This document shows, in pieces, positions 11,464 through 48,379 of a stretch of DNA of 64,000 nucleotides. Source of the DNA: Podarcis liolepis (lineage: Eukaryota); the NCBI GenBank assembly GCA_965112155.1, contig OZ218106.1; one strand, written 5' to 3'. The notes beneath the pieces are model-generated. The model made no database searches. It had not been told where the DNA came from and was given only the letters and a program-made list of their open reading frames with translations. The stretch's first letter is position 1, and each line of letters starts with the position of its first letter. Both the position numbers and the translations under genes were made by a program.

Positions 11464-11512
<49 letters not shown>
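11464..11512. repeat. (TC)n microsatellite
   Basis: Direct observation. Confidence 0.95.
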
Positions 11513-11515
<3 letters not shown>

Positions 11516-12392
11516 TTCATTTGCTTTATTTTCTCCTCTTTAATTAGTTTCATTCAATCACCCATCATTGTGAAGAGAATAAAGCAGTTAACACCAGAGC
11601 AGTCACTATAACTATGTATGCACTAGTGTCTTAAAATGCAGTGAGCCCATTTCCCTTTGCTGTGTTTCAGGTCACATTTGCACATTGTTGAACACACTGA
11701 ACACACTAGAGAGGAGGTGGGGGAGGGGTGCTTGCACATGACCTGCTTGGTTTCCCTTGGCCCTGTAACCTCAGCAACTCCTGTTCATGAAGCTATCATC
11801 TGCACATGTGCTGTAATCTGCACAGACGCAACAATCTCAAGTATACACACCTCAGCTCACCTGTGAAGTGAATTTGGCTTCAGTTTAATTGAGGCAGGCT
11901 TGAGGAGAAATGCCTCAAAGAAACTACAGGCAAGTACTGCATTGAGGTAGCACTGTGTATGCACTGATTCAAAACCCAGCGGTGGGAGCACACTAGAGCC
12001 AGAATAAATGGTAATGTGTACACAGCCTATGATTACATATAACCCAGACTCTATAATCAGTAAAACAGGTCTTTCAGAACGGACAGTAATGGGATTCATA
12101 AAGCAGACCCAAACTTTGGCCCATTTCCCATGCATTTGATACTCGCACAACAGCAACGTCCCTCCCTCCGGCATTATTCCTTTCTCTTTTTAGCTGCTGG
12201 CAACAGTCTACAAATGCTGAGTAAAAGCTATTTAATCAGATCATTTTTTTGCCGTGTGCTGTATTATAAATGAAAACAAATCTAACTATCACAATTTTGA
12301 CTGGGATACAGAGACAGGTGGATTACTGAGGTGCAAAACTTATGAAGTGATTCCTTATCTTGTTCCCTGTAGCACTACTTAAGCATTTACAG

Positions 12393-12483
12393 ATAATGAT
12401 AATAATAATAATAATATATTATTTATACCCCGCCGATCCAAGGCTTCCAACAATACAATAGTTCTTCAGCCATTAAAAGCTTC
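12393..12483 (-). mobile_element. Internally deleted L2 3' tail with (TAT)n end
   Basis: aataat...tttataccccgcc, ggcttccaaca and cattaaaagcttc match the reverse complement of the L2 tails at 46520-46685 and 560-624, and the minus copy at 48380-48510. Confidence 0.7.
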
Positions 12484-12617
12484 TGCTCGGGGGTCGCATA
12501 ACTAGTTAGCATGCCAGAGTCTCATTCATTATCGGAATTAACCAGAGAAATTGCTCCACCAACTAAGAACGGCCATGCACCAACACCCACAGAATCGAGA
12601 AAGAGCTATCAATCTGT
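12483..12617 (-). pseudogene. 18S rRNA fragment (135 bp, rRNA pseudogene)
   Basis: Reverse complement reads ACAGATTGATAGCTCTTTCTCGATTCTGTGGGTG...GCATGGCCGTTCTTAGTTGGTGGAGC...CTGGTTAATTCCGATAA...GACTCTGGCATGCTAACTAGTTA, a universally conserved eukaryotic 18S segment. Most differences from the recalled vertebrate 18S are CpG-to-TpG/CpA changes. Confidence 0.95.
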
Positions 12618-12877
12618 TATTGCCAGCACCAGAACTGGACACTATCCCTCTCCCCTTGTCCAGGCACAGCAGGGGTTCCACTATGGTGGAGGTGCCCCCA
12701 TCCCAGGGGAGTCTGATGGAGAAGATCTGATACACCATCCAGCTAACAGCAGCAGTGTGTTACTTTTTCACTTTTAGTTTAGTTTATTAATCAAAGAAAC
12801 AAGTCACATTGAGTTAAATGGGGAAGTGTGTATGGGACATGAAAGTCTCATGGAAATGAAAAATAAATCAAGCTATA

Positions 12878-13082
12878 AAAAGGTAAAGGTAAAAGTAAAG
12901 GACCCCTGACAGCTAAGTCCTGTCACTTAGCTGAACCCCAGAATGACTCTGGGGTTGCGGTGCTCATCTCACTTTACTGGCCAAGGGAGCCAACATTTGT
13001 CCACAGACAGTTTTTCTGGGTCATGTGGCCAGCATGACGAAAACCGCTTCTGGTGAAACCAGAGCAGCACACAGAAACACAC
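12878..13082 (-). mobile_element. 5'-truncated Sauria SINE
   Basis: (ACCTTT)n tail and body similar to 2610-2800. Confidence 0.88.
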
Positions 13083-16000
13083 CTACTGTATCAAGCAAAA
13101 TAGGTGGCTATAGACTTGGCTTAAATCGTGCAGCTGTTTAAACTTTTCATTCTGAAAAGCTGTGTTCTGAAGAGGTGGCAAATAGCTATGCACTTATAAT
13201 ATCCTACCACTTTTGAAATGGGGGAAAACCCACACATTTTGGATTATGAAATTTATAATTGAAAAACCTTGTTCCCTTGCAACCACAATTTTTTCAGAAA
13301 GAGCTACCAGCTTCTTACGCTCATCTTGACTGGTCTGATTGCAATCTTTTCTATTTGTGTTATGAATTATACTGTAGTGTCAAAACAGAATATAGTCTAA
13401 TTTTTCACACTATTTTTATCGTACTTCTGTCCAGATCCTCATCCAAGGAGCTCCGGGAAGCTAACATAGGCCTTTTTGCTTTTTTGGGTGTTATTACGGT
13501 ATTTCACAGCACCCTCTCACAGAACTTGGGATCATCCGGTCAAACTGATTGACACTAGTCTTGGTAGGACACACAAAAAAGAAGATGCTTTTTTTTATAC
13601 AACACATAATTAATTTACAGAATTACATGCTACAAGATGTGACTACGTCTTAGGTAGCTTTAAAATGTCTAGACCAATTTATGGAGGACAGGACTATTGA
13701 TGGGGCTTCACTGCACTATCATTGCTGCTAAGCCACCCTTCTAAAACTCTGATAGATTTTTTTAATCCATTTTTTAGATATGTTTCAAGAAGAGTCCTTT
13801 GGGATCAGGCCAAAGGCCCAGCAAATGTTTTCACAATGGCCAGGCAGATGCCCATGGCAAGCTTGCAAGCAGGTGCTCAGTGAAGCAGCATTTCTCTTCC
13901 TTGTGCTTGCCAGAAACTGGTATTCAGACATATGTTGCCTCTGACAGTGGAGGCAGTACATAGGCATCATGGTTACTTTTTGATGACTGTGAGACTCTTA
14001 TTTCCATGGAAAATTGTTGACTAATAGCAGTGATGTCACTTGCAAGATTTGGGGACCTAGAACACTTGAATAAGGATTTACAAATATTTCTGTACTGCAT
14101 GTTACTGGTAAATCTCCAAGTTAAGTGTTACTGATTGATTTTTATTATTATTTACATTCAAAAAAGGTGCTAATTATGTATTTCCTGTGGAGCCAATTAA
14201 AGGTGCTACATACATTTAGTCATATCCCCAGACAGTGCCAGCCCTGAATTTCAAAAAGTGTGTGCAATTTGCCTTTAGTGATAGCAGTGCTGGATATGGG
14301 GCGGTGCAGGCAGTCCCCTCCTCCCAGTGTGCTGAGTCAAGGGGGCACAAGACTATGACATAGCACATTTTGAGAGCATGTTCAGAATAAAAGGTGAGAT
14401 TGGGGAGGGACCAACTTTTGTCCTCGCTCAGGGCATTGTATTACCAAAGTCCACCCCTGGTGACGGCATTGTTCAGCTCTCCTTATTCTATTATTCATAA
14501 TCAATCCAGAGGGCATTTTACTATGGCCCTTCTCTTTACAGCATAGCAGGATACTAAAAATTGTTTTGTCAGCTGGGGGTCGGATGCAGAGGGCAGTCTT
14601 CTTTCTTCTCTCTGCTCTGTGTCCAGCCTTGCCTTTCTGGGCTTTCGAGAAAGGAATTCTCTATGTCCTCCACCTTCTGGGCTCTGAAACAGTTGGCTGG
14701 AGGACTGACAGCCACCCCACCCCTCTCCCTTATTTTGCGAGACACCCGAGCTCCTCAGAATGGAAGAAGCACCCACGTTGTGCAGGCAACAGAATGACCT
14801 CTTACCTTGCCACTTCTTCCCTTTGCTGCGGGTGAATTGTTGATGCTGTCAGGCAGGCACTGTTCTTCTCAGGGCATAGTGTGTACAGGGCTGACTTCCA
14901 TGGCCTTGGCATGCTGTGGGAATGCTGCTGCCAAGCAGATGCCTGGCAAATTGCCATTACTTGCTTCTTCTGGGGGAAAAAATGACAATGGAACAAATTA
15001 AGAAGGAAGCCTATTCTGCTCATTTTAACTTGCCCCTGTGCGGTGACTTTGACTGTGCAGTGACCATAGTGGTGAACTTGGGTACTAATAGCACCCTGTG
15101 CAAGACCAAAATTCCACCACCTCCCAGCTCTTGTGCTGCAACCAAGGCACCGACTTTAGCAAGGAGGCACTGCCTTCTCAAAGGCGGGTAAGAAAAACAC
15201 TAGGGAAGAAGACAGGAGAGCCTCATGCCTCCTTTTGAAAGCCCAGCACCTTGGCTCAGTGCCCAGTGTGTTTGCACCACTCTCCCAGCCCTAAATCCAC
15301 CCCCACAATACATCAGTTATACAACTTGTAAGTATTATTTTATCTCAATTCTGTATTCAGTCAAATAACATAATTAACAGATTTTCTTTTCAATATTCTT
15401 TATTTTATTTTCAGATGGTTGATATATTAACCAGCAGCAATCCTATCACTTAGGATGGCTAACAACACTTAAAAGGAACAAAAGGGGCAGAGCACAGATT
15501 TATTTTTCAAAACGTTTCAAATATCTCTTCCCTTTCATCCCTGCATTTAGTACTTTCCTTTCTTCCCTGAAAAGCCAATTCTGTTTTTTCAAATATGTGT
15601 GTGTGTCTATGTGTGTTGTGTACACACTGAATGTTAAATTAAGACTATAGCTGTTTCATGACAGTGATTAAAAGTCCATTCCAGTGCAAAAGTCCTTTAA
15701 AGTTAGACTTTAAATATTATCCGGGGCTGGACATTCTAAGCTACCAGTTCTGGCAGTAGATGCAGCAGGGTCGAGTGGTCGCAAGTTGTTGGAAGACAGA
15801 AAACCCGATTGCCATTTGCTCTGATTAAGTGATAAAATGTGGGTTTATCTAGAGAAAGTGACAGAAGGGAAAAAAATGGTCAGACATGAACCTGGAAATC
15901 ATAGACCTGTTCCTAGAAACTCAACACAAAAAGAAGTATAGATCAGACGTCTTGCAAGGACACTTTTATTTTCAGAACCTGCTGAAGACATTCTTATTTA

Positions 16001-16491: not shown

Positions 16492-18752
16492 CACTGGTCA
16501 ACAACAAATTTGTTGTCTGCATTTTTTCTGTTGATTTAGGACGAATCTGATGCGCTGAATCCAAAAATCACATTGGTTTTGCTCAATCAGGTCAAGTTTT
16601 TGAGCTATGGCCACATGTCGTTTTTTACGTTTTTGTTCACATGTACGCTTGTGTGGAGCATTTTAGAAGAAGTTGGTGGGGGTAAAATGCCATGTCGAAT
16701 AATTGTTTTGATTGGAAATGATTATTTTAATGACAAGAAGTATTTAGGTCCGATAGTTCTGGGTGATTATGTCAAAAAGGGATCAGTTTGAAGTCATAAA
16801 ACCTCGAAATCTTCCATAAATTGGTGCGGCAAAGCATAAAGTTATTTTGGTATTAAACTTGGTGACCAGGATAAAGCTTGGGCACCACACATGGTGTGCA
16901 AGGCATGCACCGAGACTCTACGTGGGTGGACCAATGGCAAGAGGAGTCTGAACTTTGGAATTCCCATGGTTTGGAGGGAGCCGACAAACCATGTCACTGA
17001 CTGCTACTTCTGCGCTGTTGATGTGACTGGGATCAACAGAAAGAACCAGAGCAGCCTCAAGTATCCTGATCTTCAATCAGCACGTCATCCTGTAGCTCAT
17101 TGTGATGAAATTCCAGTGCCTATCTTAGGAGAACTTCCTGACATTAGTGACGAAGATGCCTCCAGTGTTGAAGGACATGAAGAAGAAGAAGTGGTTCTTG
17201 AAGATGATGCTCCACATCCATTTTCCCAAAAGGAGTTGAATGATCTAGTTCGCGACCTCAGCTTGTCAAAGGACTCTGCCACACTGTTGGCATCCAGATT
17301 GAAGGAAAAAACCTCCTCTCTGACAGTGCTCGCATCAGCTTTTTCCGCAACAGGCATCAAGAGTACCTCCGTTTTTTCTCGGAAGAGAAGGACCTGGTGT
17401 ACTGTGCAGATATTGCACAGCTTCTGCTCAAGCTTGGAGTGCCACAGTATGAACCCAAAGATTGGAGACTGTTCACTGACAGCAGCAAGCGATCACTGAA
17501 ATGTGTTCTGCTACACAATGGCAACCAGTTTGCCTCTATACCCCTGGCTCACTCGAGTACACTGAAGGAGAACTATGAAGCGGTGAAGTATGTGTTGGAG
17601 AAAATTGGTTATGATCAGCGTAAGTGGTTTATTTGTGTTGACCTGAAGATGGTGAACTTTTTGTTGGGACAACAGTCTGGCTTCACCAAGTACCCATGTT
17701 TTCTGTGCATGTGGGATAGTAGGGACCGTGCTCAGCATTACACGAAGAAGGACTGGCCTGTGCGGGAGGAATTGGTGTCTTGCAGAGAAAGGAACGTCAT
17801 CAACGACCCTCTGGTGGACAGAGACAGAATATTCTTCCCACCACTGCACATCAAGCTCGGCTTAATCAAGCAGTTCACCTAGGCTCTGGACAAGGATGGT
17901 GACTGCTTCACTTACTTGTGCCAGGCTTTTCCAGGATTGACCATGGAGAAGTTGAAAGCTGGCATCTTTGACGGTCCTCAGATCCATCAGCTCATCAGAG
18001 ATCCAGAGTTCGGAAACTCAGTGAACGAAGTGGAACTGGAAGCGTGGAAGGCATTTGTTCTGGTAGTAAAAAACTTTCTTGGCGGTCAATAAGGCCAGAA
18101 ACTACGCAGAACTTGACAACAGCATGCTGACTGCTTTCAGAAACCTGGGCTGCAACATGAGTGTCAAGATGCACTACGTATTTTCACATATGGACCGGTT
18201 TCCTGAGAACCTGGGTTCAATGAGTGACGAGCAGGGGGAGAGATTCCATCAGGACATGAAAGAGATGGAGACCAGGTATCAGGGTCGCTGGGACGCAGTT
18301 ATGATGGCTGACTACTGTTGGACTCTGAAGAGAGACCTCCCTGCCGTCGAGCATTCCAGGAGTTCCAAGAAACGGAGGTTCAAGCCCTGAAGTTTGAAAA
18401 ATGGTGAAGCAACATGCAATTTACGTGTACTTACCTTTATCAATGCCCACCATTCAGTTTACAGTAATCGATGTTTCTATCAGGTAATCAATATATGTTG
18501 TTGGAAAAACATTTTTTTCCTCTTAAAAACATATTTAGGATGATATGTGTTGACAAAAATCAGCTGATAATGCCACAAAAAATGTAATCGATTTTGTCAC
18601 AAGATCTGATTTTTTTCAAATCAACATAACACAAAAACCTGACCTGATGGAGAGAAAGGGATGCCATTTCCTGATTCAGCAGTGCAAAAATACACTAAAT
18701 CAGTTGTAGAAATCTAAACAACATTCAAAAAGTAAAAAATTGTTACCCAGTG
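16492..18752 (+). mobile_element. Chapaev3-type (CMC superfamily) DNA transposon, internally deleted and disabled
   Basis: Ends CACTGG...CCAGTG with long imperfect inverted similarity (gctgaatc, atcaggtca.gtttttg on both ends). 3-bp TSD TTA (16489-16491, 18753-18755). Encodes a transposase remnant. Confidence 0.88.
16852..18390 (+). pseudogene. Chapaev3 transposase pseudogene
   Basis: Motifs YFGIKLGDQDKAWAPH, PMVWREPTNHVTDCYFC, WRLFTDSSKRSLKCVLLHNGN, DLKMVNFLLGQQSGFTKYPCFLC, PPLHIKLGL, SDEQGERFHQD, split over ORFs 16891-17499, 17397-17882 and 18079-18390. Frameshift near 17310, stop at 17880, a further frameshift near 18080. The N-terminal part appears deleted. Confidence 0.88.
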
Positions 18753-20733: not shown

Positions 20734-23646
20734 TCAGAGCACTCCTGACATATGGTTGTCAAGCCTCTGCTTAAAGACCTCCAAAAAAGGAGACTCCACC
20801 ACACTCCTTGGCAGCAAATTCCACTGTTGAACAGCTCTTACTGTCAGGAAGTTCTTCCTAATGTTTAGGTGGAATCTTCTTTCTTGTAGTTTGGATCCAT
20901 TGCTCCGTGTCCGCTTCTCTGGAGCAGCAGAAAACAACCTTTCTCCCTCCTCTATGTGACATCCTTTTATATATTTGAACATGGCTATCATATCACCCCT
21001 TAACCTCTTCTCCAGGCTAAACATGCCCAGCTCCCTTAGCCGTTCCTCATAAGGCATCGTTTCCAGGCCTTTGACCATTTTGGTTGCCCTCCTCTGGACA
21101 CGTTCCAGTTTGTCAGTGTCCTTCTTGAACTGTGGTGCCCAGAACTGGACACAGTACTCCAGGTGAGGTCTGACCAGAGCAGAATACAGTGGCACTATTA
21201 CTTCCCTTGATCTAGATGCTATACTCCTATTGATGCATCCCAGAATTGCATTGGCTTTTTTAGCTGCCGCGTCACACTGTTGGCTCATGTCAAGTTTGTG
21301 GTCAACCAAGACTCCTAGATTCTTTTCACATGTACTGCTCTCAAGCCAGGTGTCACCCATCTTGTATTTGTGCCTCTCATTTTTTTTGCCCAAGTGCAAT
21401 ACTTTACATTTCTCCCTGTTAAAGTTCATCTTGTTTGTTTTTGCCCAGTTCTCTAATCTGTCAAGGTCGTTTTGAAGTGTCCTCTGGGGTGTTAGCCACC
21501 CCTCCCAGTTTGGTGTCATCTGCAAATTTGATCAGGATGCCCTTGAGTCCATCATCCAAGTCATTGATAAAGATGTTGAATAAGACCGGGCCCAAGACAG
21601 AACCCTGTGGCACCCCACTAGTCACTCTTCTCCAGGATGAAGAGGAACCATTGATGAGCACCCTTTGGGTTTGGTCAGTCAGCCAGTTACAAATCCACTG
21701 AGTGGTAGCATAGTCAAGACCGCATTTTACCAGCTTCTTTACAAGAATATCATGGGGCACCTTGTCGAATGCCTTGCTTGAAATCAAGGTAGGCTACATC
21801 CACTGCATTCCCTTCATCTACCAGGCTTGTAATTCTGTCAAAAAACGAGATCAGGTTAGTCTGACATGACTTATTTTTCAGAAATCCATGCTGACTATTG
21901 GTGATCACAGCATTCCTTTCTAGGTGTTCACAGACTGTTTGCTTAATGATCTGCTCCAGAATCTTCCCTGGTATTGATGTCAGACTGACTGGGCGATAAT
22001 TATTTGGGTCCTCTCTTTTCCCCCTTTTGAAAATAGGGACAACATTTGCCCTCCTCCAGTCTTCCGGGACTTTGCCTGTTCTCCAGGAATTCTCAAAGAT
22101 GACTGCCAGTGGTTCTGAGATCACACCTGCCAGTTCTTTTAATGCTCTTGGATGCAGTTCGTCTGGCCCTGGAGACTTGAATACATCTAAACTAGCCAAG
22201 TATTCTTGTACTATCTCCTTAGTTATTCTGGGCTGTGTTTCCTTTGCTGAATCATTTGCTCCAAATTCTTCAGGTCGGGCATTGTTTTCTTTATCGGAGA
22301 AGACTGGGGCAAAGAAGGCATTGAGGAGTTCAGCCCTTTCTGTGTCCCCTGTTTGCATTTCACCATCTTCTCCTCTGAGTCACCCCACTGTTTCTTTGCT
22401 CTTCCTTTTGCTACGGACATACCCATAAAAGCCTTTTTTTGTTGCTTTTAACCTCTCTAGCAAGCCTGAGTTCATTCTGTGCTTTAGCTTTTCTGACTTT
22501 GTGTCTACATGTGCTGGCTATTTGTTTGAATTCCTCTTTGGTGGTTTCCCCCCTTTTCCATTTTTTGTACACATCCTTTTTAAATCTTAACTCAGTTAAA
22601 AGTTCTTTAGATAGCCACCCTGGCTTCTTTAGGCACCTTCCATGTTTCCGTCTCATTGGTATTGCCTGAAGTTGTGCTTTTAGTATCTCCCTCTTAACAA
22701 ACTCCCAGCCATCATGAACTCCCTTTCCCTTTAGTATTACTGTCCATGGGATCTCACCCAGTACTTCCATAAGTTTTATGAAGTCGGCTTTCTTAAAGTC
22801 AAGAAATTGAGTCCTAGTATGCTTGGCTGCTCCTTTCCGCTGTATAGTAAACTTCAGAAGAGCATGATCACTCGCGCCTAATGATGCTTTCACTTCTACC
22901 CCACTAACCAGGTCATCAACATTGGTTAGGACCAGATCTAAAATGGCTGTTCCTCTTGTTGCTTCTCCCACTTTCTGGACAATGAAGTTGTCTGCATGGC
23001 CAGTGAGGAATCTGTTTGACCTTATGCTCTTGGCTGAGTTTGACATCCAACAAATATCCGGGTAATTGAAGTCCCCCATTACTACTATCTCCCTTCCTTT
23101 TGCATGCTTGGCCATCTGTTCCAGGAAGGCATCATCTATGTCCTCCGTTTGGCTTGGGGATCTATAGTAAACTCCCACAATGAGGTCTCTGTTATTCTTC
23201 TCTCCCTTAATTTTGACCCAAATGCTCTCACTTTGGCTTTGAGGTTCTAAATCTTGGATCTCTTCACAGGTATACACATCCCTGACATATAACGCCACTC
23301 CTCCTCCTTTCTTGTCTGGTCTGTTTCTCTGAAATAGATTGTATCCCTCCATTATTACATTCCAATCGTGGGACTTATCCCACCAGGTTTCAGTGATTCC
23401 TATTATGTCATATTTAGTTTGCTGTACCAAGAGCTCAAGCTCATCTTGTTTATTTCCCATGCTTTGCGCATTAGTGTACAGACATTGAAGTCCATTAATC
23501 ATTCCCCCGTGTCTCTTATTTAAGGATTTTTTCCTCCCACCACTAGGTCTGCGTGCTGTTTGCTCCATTTGGTCTATGACATTTGGATGATCATTTTCAT
23601 CAATTGATAGACTCCTACCTTCAGGAGCACTGTCTCCCTCCCCCAC
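20734..23646 (-). pseudogene. CR1 ORF2 (APE endonuclease plus reverse transcriptase), about 3 frameshifts
   Basis: APE motifs LYTNAQS, GITETWW, MGDFN, SDH. RT motifs [22 protein letters not shown]. Four consecutive ORF pieces. Confidence 0.95.
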
Positions 23647-23651
23647 ATTAG

Positions 23652-24731
23652 TCAGTTTAAAGCCCTCCTGATGAGGTTTCTGAGATTTTTGGCAAAAACA
23701 TTCCTCCCAACTGTTGTGAGGTGCAGCCCATCGCTTGCCAGAAGTCCATCTTCAAGAAACTTGTCCGTGATCTAAGAATCCAAACCGTTCCTGTTTACAC
23801 CATTTGCGAAGCCAGCTGTTCACTTCCACTATTTCCCCCTCACTCCCTGGGCCACGTCGTTCAACTGGGAGGACAGATGAGATGACAATTTGTGCATTTA
23901 ATTGCTTCAATTTCCTGCCCAGAGCCTCGTAGTCTCTTTTGATCTTCTGGAGGTATTGCTTGCAGTGTCATTGGTTCCCACATGAACCAAGAGGAAGGGG
24001 TATTTGTCAGTGGGTTTTATGATTCCTTGCAGTCGTTCAGTTACATCTTGGATCTTAGCCCCGGGGAGACAGCACACCTCCCGAGACATCTTGTCAGGCC
24101 CACAGATCACTGTTTCTGTTCCCCTCAGTAGGGAATCCCCTATCACCACTACACACCTCCTCTTAGGTTTGGTCGGGGTTCTTCCGTGAGCTGTCCGTTC
24201 CAAGGTCGCCTGCACATTCCCTGAGGACTGACTTTGCTGCTCATCTTCATATACCTGATCGACTGAAATGAGGGAGAGATCCTCAAATGGAGTCTGCTCT
24301 TCATCTTCCATGCTAGGGGAGGGGAACTCAAAGCGATTGTGTATTTCTAAACAATCAGAGCGAACCCTGGGCCTCCTACTTCTTTGAGTCACGTTTCTCC
24401 ATATATCTGGCACCTGTGTTGGTGAACTAGCCTCCTTCTCAGGGGTGTCCCCTATCTCCTCCTTGGTGGAGACGGTGTTCTTTGTTGCTTCCAAGAAGAG
24501 CTCCAGCTCTCTAATTCTTTGGAGCGTAGCTACACGTTCCTCCAGTTGCTGGACTTTGTCTTCTAAGAGGGCAATCAACATACAATTGCTGCAGGTAAAG
24601 CTGCCTGCAACCTTTGGCAAGATGGCAAACATTGCGCAGGAACCACAGGCGACTGCAGCTGTTCCCTCACCCTCCATCTTGAGAACGTGTCGTTGGGGGT
24701 GGCTACAGTGGTCCTCCATCTTAAAAAGCAT
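23652..24731 (-). pseudogene. CR1 ORF1 (zinc finger/leucine zipper plus SGNH esterase), frameshifted near 23950
   Basis: CGSC...CSNC, coiled coil LEDKVQQLEERVATL, GDSL and GTND motifs. The shifted frame continues to DGLHLT...LIRRALN stop. Confidence 0.9.
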
Positions 24732-26969
24732 GAAGACAGGACAAATAACCCCCCCAAAAAAACCTAGGTCTCCCCCAAGAAACGTTTGAGACTAGCTCCC
24801 CTAAATCTAAAAGATGGATCAAACTGCACGCGCCACCAGGCACGCCCGCCGCTGCCCTGCAAGATCTGATAAACTCTTCCCACAGCTAATCACCTGACTC
24901 AACAGAAACCCTGCCCCCTCTGACCTTTGCACAGGGAGAGCAGCTAATCAGCCACAAAGAAACACACACACAAGAAAACTCTTTTGCTCCTTCTTCAGCT
25001 GCTGCCCTGCAAGCTCTCCCAAGGGTCTTTGGGACAGTGTAACAAGCTAAAATACAAAGTAGGAAACAGTCAACCTGCTACTCCCAAAGCTTCTTTCACA
25101 GATTTCCTATAGTGTACACTATGTCCAAAAATGTAATCCTGTACAACTAACATAGATCAAAACTGGGATGTGTTTGATCACTGTTTTGCCAGTGGCAGAC
25201 CAAGACTCTGCTTTGAAATGCAGAGTTTGTTGTACTACAAAGCGATATTATCTAAAACCTTAACACTGTTCCACTACACGTAGTATCTTTCTAAGTTTAA
25301 TATTACTGTTTCACATCTATAATACAAACGAGGAGGTAAGGTATTGGTTCCCCAGATAAATATATGAAGTTTGAGCTTTTCATTTAAACTTCTTTTTTAA
25401 AAATGAAAATGAAAATGAAAGTGCCTACATTAAGCTTCTTAAGTTTGTATTTCCTTTTCTGTCTCAGATGGCCAAGTTGTCATTGTAACTGTGCAGTTGG
25501 GCTTATTGCCTCTTGGTAATCTAAGTAATTTGGCTGTATTAAGTAGGAACTAAATTTGCATTGTATGTAGGATACACTTTGTAGTTATGAAACCTTTCAA
25601 AGTGAAGATTTTTGTCTCAACTGAAAAGTTTGCAGAAAAGTTCAGTTCTTTATTTTAATGGAGCAGCTATAGATTTGAATTGTTAATTATGGGCCATATG
25701 GTTTGGTACATTCACACAGGGCAGAGGGATGATCAGATGACCAGATTTGAAGAGAAGAGCCAGGAGGTAGCTGTCGAGGAGGAAAGTAAGCTATAAAGTC
25801 AGCTCCCACGCCATATGCCAGTTTAGGCATGCCGTAGTGACATGAGGGCAGCAGGTAGGGAAACCATCTCTGTGTGAATACAGAAGCAGGGTCAGGCTCT
25901 AGTCAGCGATTCTGTGCCGCTCGTTCTTTTGAGCACCAAAATTATAATGTAAAAGAAATTTCAAGTCAATACTAGGAATGGAAGGTTCTGAAAATTTTTG
26001 TTTGCTTGTATTCTCTTTTTTTCAGTTTCAATTTAGTACTCCACATTTCTGCAAAAAATAAAAATAAAATAAATCTTCATGAAATATTTCTCCTAAGCAG
26101 CACATTTTGTATGCAGTTTAGAGTAATGCACACATTTTTTGCAAGCAATTTCTCCTAATATTATTCACTTTTGGATTTCCCCCTACTAATATATTCATTT
26201 TTATGCACACGTTTCCCCAATGTATGCATTTTTGTAAACATTGGTTGGAGAACTGCATTGCAAAATTTGAATAAGTGCAAGTTTTGAAGAAGGGCTATGG
26301 TTTGGTTCTCATTGTATAAAGTTTGATATACTGCCGGAGACATCTGGTAGTATATAACAGTTGACATGCAATGTCAACTGTCACTAGTGTTAACTGAAAG
26401 CTATATTCAGTGGTATATATTACAAGGATACATGCCTGTCAAAGAACTTTTACATGCCTTAAAGATTCCTGAGACTTGCTCTGCTGTGCCTGCTTAGTTC
26501 ACACAAAGCCTTCCAATGGCCTGTTGCGATTTGACAGTTGCTTGGATATCCAGTGTTTTTCCCCTGTGAGAGAATAATCTTCTGAAGAAGACTGGTGTTC
26601 GTGGAAAGATTTCTTCTGGTCAAGGAAAGATACCTTCTGTGAATAGAACTCTCATTCTGTCCCATCTCTCCCTCCCCCTCAGTAGCAAGTTTGTCCTAAA
26701 ACACTCCCAATATTCTCTTGCTGCCGCACATTGCATAGGAACATCAGCAGATATTTGATATGTGATGGCCTGTTTCATCTTACAGCATTTGATAGATAGC
26801 TTGCAATTATATCTAGTATCTAATGACACTTGACAGATTACATTAAATAGTAATTTGTATTTGACACTTGATAGCTAAAATTTGCCTTTCCTGGTCTTTG
26901 GGTCTCCAAGAGGTCCTTGGCCATGTCATTGGTTGATTTTCTGCAGTCTTATTGGTTTGGAGGCTGGGC

Positions 26970-44329: not shown

Positions 44330-46555
44330 TGCCATGGTCAGATCACTTCCTGGTGCAACTGGACTTCTCCGCAACCCTTCCCCTCTGCAGGGAGGTGGGA
44401 CCGATTCGGATGGTCCGCCCCCACCACTTAATGGATCCAATTGGCTTCCAGAGAGTGGTAGGGGATGCTTTATCCCAAGTTGATGACCTTTCAGCTGATT
44501 CTCTGGTGGCACGCTGGCATGCGGAGTTAACCAGGGTATTGACTGTCTGGCTCTGAAGCGCCCTCTCCGATTGCATGGAGCCCGGACAGCCCCGTGGTTT
44601 TCCCCGGAGCTGAGGGCGATGAAACAATTGTTGAGACGGCTAGAGCGGCGGTGGCGGAAAACTCATTCTGAATCAGACCGGACACGGGTTAGAGCTCAAT
44701 GTTGAGCCTACCAAGTGGCAATGGCGACGGCGAAGAGGGCCTTCTTCGCCGCCTCCATTGCATCTGCAGAAAACAGCAGCATGAGACTTTTTCAGGTGGT
44801 TCACAATCTATCGGAACCACCTGTACCACCGGGGCCTGGTAGGGACCCCAAGATCTCCTGCAATGCTTTTGCAAAGTTTTTTGCAGATAAAATCGCTCAG
44901 ATTCAGAAGGAGGTAGACTCCACCGTGGGAGCAGGGCCAGGGCGGGAGAGTGCTAGAGTTCTGTCTGGTCCTGTTACATGGGATCAATTCCAATCTGTTA
45001 CTTCCGAGGATGTGGACAGGCTGCTTGGACAAGTGAAACCGACCACCTGTCTCCTTGATCCTTGCCCATCCTGGCTGATAAAAGCGAGCCGGGAAGGGCT
45101 GGGCGATGGGCTCTGCGGGGTGGTGAATGCTTCCCTCTGTGAGGGAGCCTTCCCAGACCCACTGAAAGAGGCGGTCATTAAACCACTTCTTAAAAAAACA
45201 TCTTTAGACCCGGCCAATTTGGTCAACTATCGCCCAGTCTCAAATCTGCCATTCTTGGGCAAGGTGATTGAGCGGGTGGTTGCTGAACAACTCCAAGCAC
45301 GCTTGGAGGAAACGGACCATTTGTATCCCTTCCAATCGGGATTCAGGCCTCACCATGGGACTGAAACTGCCTTGGTCGCGCTGGTTGATGATATCCGGCG
45401 CGCTAGGGACAAAGGTGAGAGCTGTTTCCTAGTTCTGCTGGATCTCTCAGCGGCCTTTGACACCATTGACCATAACATCCTTCTGGACCGTCTAGAAGGG
45501 CTGGGAGCTGGGGGCACTGTCATACAGTGGTTCCGCTCCTTCCTCCTGGGCCGTGTCCAGAAAGTGGTGGGGGGGATGAGTGTTCAGACCCCTGGGCTCT
45601 CACTTGTGGGGTGCCTCAGGGTTCTGTCCTCTCCCCCATGCTTTTTAATATCTATATGAAGCCGCTGGGAGAGATCATCAGGGGGTTTGGACTGGGTGTT
45701 CATCAGTATGCAGATGACACCCAGCTTTACCTCTCCTTTAAATCAGAACCAGTGAAGGTGGTGAAGGTCCTGTGTGAGTGCCTGGAGGCGGTTGGAGGAT
45801 GGGTGGCGGCTAACAGATTGAGGTTGAATCCTGACAAGACAGAAGTACTGTTTTTGGGGGACAGGGAGCGGGTTGGTGTGGGGGATTCCCTGGTCTTGAA
45901 TGGGGTAACTGTGCCCCTGAAGGACCAGGTGCACAGCCTGGGAGTCATTTTGGACTCACAGCTGTCCATGGAGGCGCAGGTTAACTCTGTGTCCAGGGCA
46001 GCTGTCTACCAGCTCCACCTGGTACACAGGCTAAGACCCTACCTGCCCGCGAACTGCCTCGCCAGAGTGGTGCATGCTCTAGTTATCTCACGCTTGGACT
46101 ACTGCAATGCGCTCTACGTGGGGTTATATTTGAAGGTGACCCGGAAGCCGCAATTAATCCAGAATGCGGCAGCTAGCCTGGTGATTGGGAGTGGCCGCCG
46201 GGACCACATAACACCGGTTCTAAGAGATCTTCCTTTGCTCCCAGTACGTTTCCGAGCACAATTCAAAGTGTCGGTGCTGACCTTTAAAGCCCTAAACGGC
46301 CTCGGTCCTGTATACCTGAAGGAGCGTGTCCACCCCCATCGTTCAGCCCGGACACTGAGATCCAGCGCTGAGGGCCTTCTGGCGGTTCCCTCATTGCGAG
46401 AAGCAAAGCTACAGGGAACCAAGCAGAGGGCCTTCTCAGTAGTGGCGTCCGCCCTGTGGAACACCCTCCCATCAGATGTCAAAGAGATAAATAATTACCT
46501 GACATTCAGAAGACATCTTAAGGCAGCCCTGTTCAGGGAAGTTTTAAATATGTAA
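44330..46555 (+). pseudogene. L2 ORF2 (reverse transcriptase) remnant
   Basis: [60 protein letters not shown]. Frameshift in the G-run near 45570 and stops upstream. Confidence 0.92.
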
Positions 46556-46635
46556 CGCTGTACTGTTTTTAACACTGATTGGTAGCCGCCCAGAGTGGCT
46601 GGGGAAGCTCAGCCAGATGGGCGGGGTATAAATAA

Positions 46636-46685
<50 letters not shown>
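44330..46685 (+). mobile_element. 5'-truncated L2 LINE
   Basis: End of the APE domain (WSDHFLV), RT domain, L2-type 3' UTR and (TAT)n tail at 46636-46685. CpG-rich, hence relatively young. Confidence 0.93.
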
Positions 46686-46687
<2 letters not shown>

Positions 46688-48379
46688 TAAACTGCTTATT
46701 TATTATTATTTCTTTATAACATTTGTACCTTGGTCTTCAGCTGCAAAGTCTCCCAAAGTGGCTTTACACGAAATCAGTTAAAATTGTCCTGCAGGTTTAC
46801 AATCTAAAGGACATGGCACAGAACGGAAAGCGACCAGGGAGGGATGAGGAAAAATGCCAATTTACAAACAATTCTTAAAATTAAATAGCAGTTCTAAAGG
46901 ACTAGCATGGAATGGAAACTGTTCAGAGGCGGGGGGGCGTCTGATGGAGCAGGTCTGTCAGCAGAATGGGTAGAATGAACCTTGCTTCCCATCTCTCTCT
47001 CACTGAGGCAGCTCTTCTGTGTTTCTTCACGTGGAGGTTGCCATTGTGTGGTAAGCTGGTCGTGTGATGTGGTTTCCTATGCCTATTGGATTCTTTCCCC
47101 CAAATCAATGCAAATCTTACTTTTAAGATGTTTGCACTGCCATTGAGAAAAATGCTGCATTCGTATGGATGGTGATCCCATGCTACAAAAATAGGGAGCA
47201 ATGTGGTTGCTGTATCACGTATGAATAAGGGTTCTGTATTCAACAACTAGCTTCTTGTTCATACCTCGATACAATTTACACTTAATGCCTCTCTTGTAAG
47301 CCCAGTTGAGTTAGTGTATGGATAGCTCACTTCCCTAACTAAAAGGGTGGGAAAACTGTAGCTTTCTGGAGGTTGTTTGAATAAAACGCCCATTATGCCT
47401 GTTCACTTGCCATGCTGGCTGGGACTGGCGAAAACTGAAACCCAACAACCAATGGAGGGTCACAGGTTCCCATGTGCCTTATTAGAATTATAATTCTCCT
47501 GCTTTGTTTGTGTTGTGCTTAGGGTCTTGTATGGAATTCAGATATTAACACTTTATTTGGTTAACTATCCATATGCATAATTTTTCTCCTTTTCCATTCC
47601 AATTCTATAATTTATTGCAAACACAAAACGAATCATATTCACATGCATCTCACAAATCTAGAATTTGCCATATAGGTATATGAATTTTACCAAACGTTTA
47701 GGAGATGCGTACATAGCTTTAAGTGGGTTGTATAAGTAGATGCATTCTCAGCATTTTCCTGATATATGAATATATGCTGGGGCTGAACTTGACTTTCAGA
47801 ATAAGCCTTGTAATTTCTATGCTCACAATTTTCAACTTGACTATAGTTCAGCTCTGATTTCACGCTGCCACGACAGTGTGCTTAATGTGAAATTTATGGC
47901 TTTAAGCATACTTGACTGTGTGCCTGATTGTGGCCTATGTGCTCCTTTATACTGGGGTGGGGAACCTGTGGTCCTTCAGATGTTGATGGAGCTCAGCACC
48001 AATCAGCCTCCTTAGTCAGCATGACTAATGATCAGGAATGGTCAGAGCTGTAGTCTTGCAATACCCTGAGGTTCCCCACTCCTGCTTTATATAATGTACC
48101 GGTAATCTTCAACCACAGATAAAGTCTGAAGATTTGTACTGCTTTGGATTGCACAACTGGGGACCCACTAAGCTGAATGCTGCCCACCAGCTACAAACTG
48201 TGGCCTGCCAGTTGCTTGACAACACTCTCCTGTTCCATTTTTGCAGCCCTAGACAAGCACCCAAACCAAGGAGGTCTGCCTGCAGCCAGTGGAACAGTAT
48301 TCAGCTCTGGAAACTCTGTGCTTGACAAGTGATGTATTCAGCTGGCATAGGGACCTCCCATTCCATAATGATAATTTTA

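Follow-up and report, generated by a model that had tools for sequence, protein, structure and literature searches.

The window analysed here, 64,000 nt of Podarcis liolepis DNA (contig OZ218106.1; assembly total 1.57 Gb), carries on its minus strand a fragment of 18S rRNA fused to the 3' end of a LINE. Read 5' to 3' on that strand, a GC-rich segment (12618-12755) is followed by the 18S piece (12617-12483) and by the LINE tail (12483-12393). The 18S piece meets the tail directly and in the same sense, without a spacer and with an overlap of two bases. The features, with the basis of each assignment in brackets, are:

12618..12755, no strand assigned: GC-rich, CpG-free, single-copy segment (DNA search, CpG count)
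12618..12623, minus strand: six bases forming part of a 10-nt repeated 18S word (word match, noticed post hoc)
12483..12617, minus strand: internal 135-bp 18S rRNA fragment in the sense of the tail, with six substitutions (Rfam and comparison with the genome's own rDNA)
12483..12484, minus strand: joint, GG in both parents and now AG, likely through CpG decay after joining (comparison with the parents)
12393..12483, minus strand: last 91 bp of a LINE 3' UTR, which we take to be L2-type, with ~25 bp of (TAT)n at its end (sister-copy alignments)

The analysis confirms the 18S rRNA–L2 fusion. The original prediction had placed 135 bp of 18S rRNA at 12617-12483 on the minus strand, and the Rfam model SSU_rRNA_eukarya matched at this piece with an E-value of 1.4e-19. 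Compared with the genome's own 18S rDNA, 128 of 133 bases were identical over 12485-12617, and 129 of 135 when the comparison was extended to 12483. We fetched 29 rDNA units (from 39 scored and 157 candidates), and all 29 were identical across the 135 bases. As the fetched units are invariant here, the six changes are private to the copy. Four are CpG transitions and two are transversions; 4 of 18 CpG positions were changed versus 2 of 117 other positions (Fisher p 0.003), which bears out the CpG decay proposed for this part, and 5 of 9 CpG are retained. We are dealing here with an old copy residing in the genome rather than with an rDNA read that was misplaced. The cmscan alignment continued past the 18S end (12339-12482), a spurious AT-rich fit to which BLAST gave no support. 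No 18S sequence resumed beyond the LINE tail, where the best local score of 15 corresponded to a 10-nt match, so the LINE did not insert into a longer 18S copy. Matches to tRNA, 5S or 7SL families were absent from 11500-13700 at E up to 1. Internal 18S sequence carries no rRNA promoter.

The tail had been described as an internally deleted L2 3' UTR with a (TAT)n end in the orientation of the 18S piece, and a failure of 12393-12483 to align to the L2 consensus had been named as the finding that would count against it. The stretch did align to an abundant LINE: sister copies of the family match it in their 3' UTR and in the same sense. Genome-wide, a 30-nt tail probe gave 183 matches within 3 mismatches and 0 in the control; our sister-tail comparisons cover the 29 of these 183 that were fetched. 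All 29 are LINE ends. Most extend upstream and are ~76-84% like the window copy at ~44330-46690, and several reach less than 30 bp upstream of the probe, i.e. very short LINE tails are common. Relative to the sister copies, the window tail lacks 10 nt at 12454/12453, and at 12441-12439 it has 3 nt in place of 28 nt that include the terminal hairpin. This hairpin is present in 25 of the 29 sister tails and absent from the window tail; on folding it formed in both intact tails (z -4.85 and -1.88), and the window tail scored -1.46 without such a hairpin. Ordinary copies lack it as well (L033, L043 and L045; four of the 29 sister tails), so that its loss is no mark of a special family.

ORF2 of the parent LINE family encodes a reverse transcriptase, for which Pfam shows only RVT_1, and a comparison of the LINE protein with the PDB returned no match. 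We provisionally assign the family to the L2 clade on the assumption that its C-terminal motif, 3' stem-loop and short tandem repeat are those of L2; PMC6050309 gave no help in naming the clade. The window holds a 5'-truncated long copy of the family at 44330-46690 (plus strand), with a reverse-transcriptase domain in its ORF. There are 1392 candidates for the family in total, and since the best copies are 96-97% identical, it was recently active. The four longest of 20 fetched copies begin ~1.1 kb further upstream with an AT-rich leader. Eleven LINE-probe matches with the same letters and strand lie within 350 kb on one contig (G000:C2, ~114.93-115.28 Mb), which suggests a tandemly duplicated block. 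Other elements were noted in the window as well. A near full-length, frameshifted LINE with an endonuclease domain and RT-like ORFs, presumably CR1, occupies 20734-24791 (minus strand), and at 16840-18390 (plus strand) lie disrupted ORFs that resemble a transposase, are spread over three frames and begin with a Cys/His-rich part; they have no Pfam match at E 0.01 and putatively represent a Chapaev3-like DNA transposon.

At the joint, the 18S parent continues with GG after 12485. The LINE parent likewise has G at both places, that of 12484 (all 29 fetched copies) and that of 12483. The microhomology suspected earlier as 'CC' is therefore present as GG on the minus strand, two bases long and common to both parents. 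The window base at 12484 is an A that matches neither parent and is likely explained by a CpG change after joining. Taken alone the two-base overlap is weak evidence, because by our own arithmetic chance expects it in roughly 1 of 6 joints.

With its RNA-derived 5' part, its LINE 3' end with a terminal repeat and the direct same-sense fusion of the two, the locus shows three features of an RNA-LINE chimeric retrocopy. We consider it likely, with a probability of roughly 0.8, that it arose in one reverse-transcription event in which the LINE enzyme switched from L2 RNA to 18S rRNA. From established target-primed reverse transcription we infer the following order of events. The LINE enzyme would have primed at a nick, starting on the (UAU)n end of the L2 RNA, and would first have copied ~125 nt of the L2 3' UTR. 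It would then have switched template onto 18S rRNA via the 2-base GG overlap and copied 135 nt of it. The free cDNA end would then have been attached to chromosomal DNA at 12617 or no more than six bases from it, leaving no target-site duplication that can be recognised. Since then the copy has decayed. Having neither an rRNA promoter nor the L2 hairpin, such a copy would be unable to spread.

A second chimera of this LINE family was found in the same genome. When we searched for a U6 3' end within 140 nt of a LINE end, the genome pattern gave one match and the control 0. At this locus (L101:1497-1620; G000:C1, ~134676725-134676850, plus strand), a 103-bp tail of the parent LINE family is fused to the last 19 nt of U6, and there is a candidate 5-bp duplication. 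It serves as a positive control, as the same LINE family made another RNA-tail chimera here. The locus sits just downstream of a CpG-rich stretch. Full-length U6 copies directly followed by a sense tail of the parent LINE numbered 0 among the best 30 of 48 scored, so such chimeras are rare in this genome. Most of these best 30 U6 matches (L051-L080) look like retrocopies. A-rich tails and clear flanking duplications are seen, for example, in L055, L057, L059, L061, L062 and L071, and several of the 30 run into AT-rich coding-like sequence that is presumably L1.

Where the insertion ends on its 5' side depends on the GC-rich segment 12618-12755. Its G+C content of 56.5% is reached by 1.8% of the window's 138-bp stretches and places it in the top 0.3% of local 138-bp windows, a standing that would fit a tripartite insertion, with this segment templated by a third RNA during that one event and the element starting near 12755. 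Such an origin would alter the boundary and not the mechanism. Its other argument is a gapped, same-sense likeness of the segment to the middle of LINE ORF2 (score 44; 1 of 500 dinucleotide shuffles did as well); this likeness, however, contains six gaps, has no counterpart at the protein level and came from one of seven targets tried, and scores against 29 loci of the closer LINE subfamily were 22-36. The segment had also been proposed as a possible L2 5' region, an idea that found no support: BLAST showed no match with the 5' ends of the longest LINE copies (four, out of 20 fetched), leaving only the weak ORF2 likeness. Searches for a parent were likewise negative. The DNA search returned one candidate, the segment itself, and one whole rDNA unit gave no match. 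A pattern search yielded 4 extra matches versus 1 in the control, none of which extends past 28 nt. Only the segment itself appeared below E 1 in the protein search, and Pfam had no match for the three frames compared, out of six. CpG content speaks against the tripartite origin, too, as the segment has 0 CpG versus 10.9 expected while the 18S part retains more than half of its own; in this it resembles the CpG-poor flanks (CpG ratio about 0.17-0.20) and differs from the 18S piece. No duplication of at least 6 bp brackets any candidate boundary, and none beyond 4 bp was found at the 12755 edge. We therefore regard the tripartite insertion as doubtful, yet worth keeping in mind, and the segment as probably older flanking host DNA.

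The probable 5' boundary near 12617 adjoins six bases, 12618-12623, that together with the first four bases of the 18S piece repeat a 10-nt word found 187 nt further along 18S. A match of this kind was equalled in 0.43% of 20,000 random flanks and was noticed after the fact; the six bases may have been added in a further short template jump within 18S, or the match may be chance.

The flanks were also looked at in related sequencing runs. The left flank was partly present in 20 of 24 runs, labelled as six organisms, with a share of 0.35-0.61. In each of the four examined among these 20, one contig spans 12000-12382 and continues for another 33-39 letters, to where the window has its (TAA)n tract; this may hint at a tail common to the relatives. 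On the other side, 12618-12884 was found in 0 contigs in 4 of 4 runs, a zero count of a sort that can be false in this search. No empty site turned up in the runs examined. The flanks contain repeats of their own. At 11968-12031, in the left flank, lies a ~60-bp multi-copy repeat, with dozens of contigs per related run at ~88-92%. A multi-copy short repeat at 12885-13080, which we take to be a Sauria SINE, is 78-86% like copies in the window and at other loci and is independent of the fusion.

A different route to the same structure would be the ligation of an 18S breakdown fragment to a cut L2 RNA by an RtcB-like activity, with the joined RNA then copied in one pass. RNA ligation has been shown for U6/L1 chimeras (PMC6789731), and it would yield the same sense and the direct joint seen here. 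It predicts no overlap, whereas GG is common to both parents at the joint, an argument that carries little force given the chance expectation. The mechanism in that report moreover relies on the cyclic-phosphate end of U6, and we saw no sign of such an end at this 18S position. We judge this route improbable.

Two separate insertions, of a stray 18S fragment and of a 5'-truncated L2 tail, might also have come to abut by accident. Both ingredients exist in this genome, in the form of tail-less 18S fragments such as the one at L050 and of the very short LINE tails mentioned above. LINE ends identified by exact motif occur 2 times in 64 kb and 4 times in 93 kb, i.e. about once per 23-32 kb; from this density we calculate that same-sense abutment within 2 bases would arise by chance in about 1e-4 per fragment. 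This makes two independent insertions unlikely, and together with the lack of 18S sequence past the tail it leaves an accidental meeting with very little probability.

The earlier reading had left two options, a single template-switch chimera and a retroposon family carrying 18S sequence, to be told apart by whether many loci or one share the junction. With 2 mismatches allowed, a degenerate 27-nt pattern for the junction had a single match genome-wide, this locus, and 0 in the control, and the central 18S motif within 220 nt of a LINE end did the same (one match, control 0); pattern searches of this kind depend on motifs that are almost intact, so that heavily decayed copies would escape them. 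One locus at the junction argues for a single chimera, and it is this option that survives. A 41-nt probe carrying the variants private to this copy had two matches (control 0), this locus and L050:1450-1723 (G000:C6, near 65632300, minus strand). The latter is an older dispersed 18S fragment, 85% identical to rDNA over 214 bp, with an extra 51-bp piece upstream. Its ends differ from those of this locus, it has no such LINE tail, and it abuts an opposite-sense repeat that is presumably a CR1 3' end. It is an independent 18S fragment and not a second 18S-plus-tail locus. Nor was rDNA sequence found near any of the 29 fetched sister tails (of 183 matches).

A head plus a LINE tail is, in outline, the anatomy of a SINE (PMC5786205), and a 28S-derived SINE has been published (PMC4994717). 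One copy of an 18S-headed, L2-mobilised SINE family is nonetheless barely credible here. A SINE family has multiple dispersed copies and an intact LINE-recognition tail; we found one locus only, L050 having different ends and no tail, and the hairpin is missing while L2 recognition is described as requiring 3' UTR structure (PMC4476161). A single locus with a lost hairpin is not a SINE family. In a variant of this idea, there would be an L2-mobilised SINE lineage with an 18S head, and the locus would be either its founder or a damaged member, the other copies being too decayed to find or residing in related lizards and the GC-rich segment being a promoter-bearing 5' part. This is a long shot; if true, the literature that we searched has no earlier example of an 18S-headed element. 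An assembly artefact joining an rDNA read to a repeat is practically negligible, as it would carry array sequence, whereas the copy differs at six places, mostly CpG transitions, from 29 identical units.

The closest known relatives of the template-switch chimera that we favour are U6-L2 chimeras, in which 5'-truncated U6 is joined to a short L2 tail, as reported in platypus, with three in Anolis (PMC4476161). They are like the present locus in that an abundant structured RNA, truncated at its 5' end, immediately precedes a short 3' piece of L2. Their duplications are small or missing, and template switching has been proposed for them; in this genome, L101 is of that type. They differ in their passenger, as the 18S fragment of our locus is internal and truncated on either side; the term 'rRNA' has 0 occurrences in the main text of that paper. 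Primate 28S-L1 chimeras resemble our locus as well. In bioRxiv 10.1101/2025.02.02.635956, internal rRNA fragments of 50-482 nt are described at 18 loci, 83% of them in LINE sense, so that internal rRNA fragments, LINE sense, size and one-off events are shared. There the LINE is LINE-1 and the rRNA 28S, versus L2 and 18S here. Neither '18S' nor 'small subunit' occurs in the main text of that preprint, whose supplements could list 18S cases.

SINEs with rRNA-derived 5' parts offer a further comparison. SINE3 has a 5S head and includes 5S-Sauria of Anolis (PMC10946416), and SINE28 is derived from 28S (PMC4994717). Both share an rRNA-derived 5' part with the fusion, and SINE3 a LINE-derived tail as well, but they are multi-copy families, and here there is one copy with a damaged tail. 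The table of rDNA-derived elements in the 2024 review gives 5S, 28S and spacer sources and none from 18S (PMC10946416). For the L2 clade itself, inserts of ZfL2-2 are described with blunt or truncated target sites and with extra nucleotides from 5' template jumps (PMC2666801, PMC4245944). Template jumps at the 5' end and the frequent absence of a clear duplication fit the present locus; the ZfL2-2 extra nucleotides, however, number several nt, compared with 135 nt of a named RNA here. Our searches of the open-access literature found no case of an 18S-L2 chimera.

The kind of chimera is thus already known from U6-L2 and 28S-L1, and an 18S rRNA passenger on an L2-type LINE is an added case that alters no existing model. 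Its importance is modest: the range of RNAs open to capture by an L2-type reverse transcriptase is extended to 18S rRNA. The locus shows the first step thought to yield LINE-tailed SINEs and, being promoterless and broken in its tail, is a dead end on that path. In comparisons of related lizards, the presence or absence of the fusion could be used as a marker.
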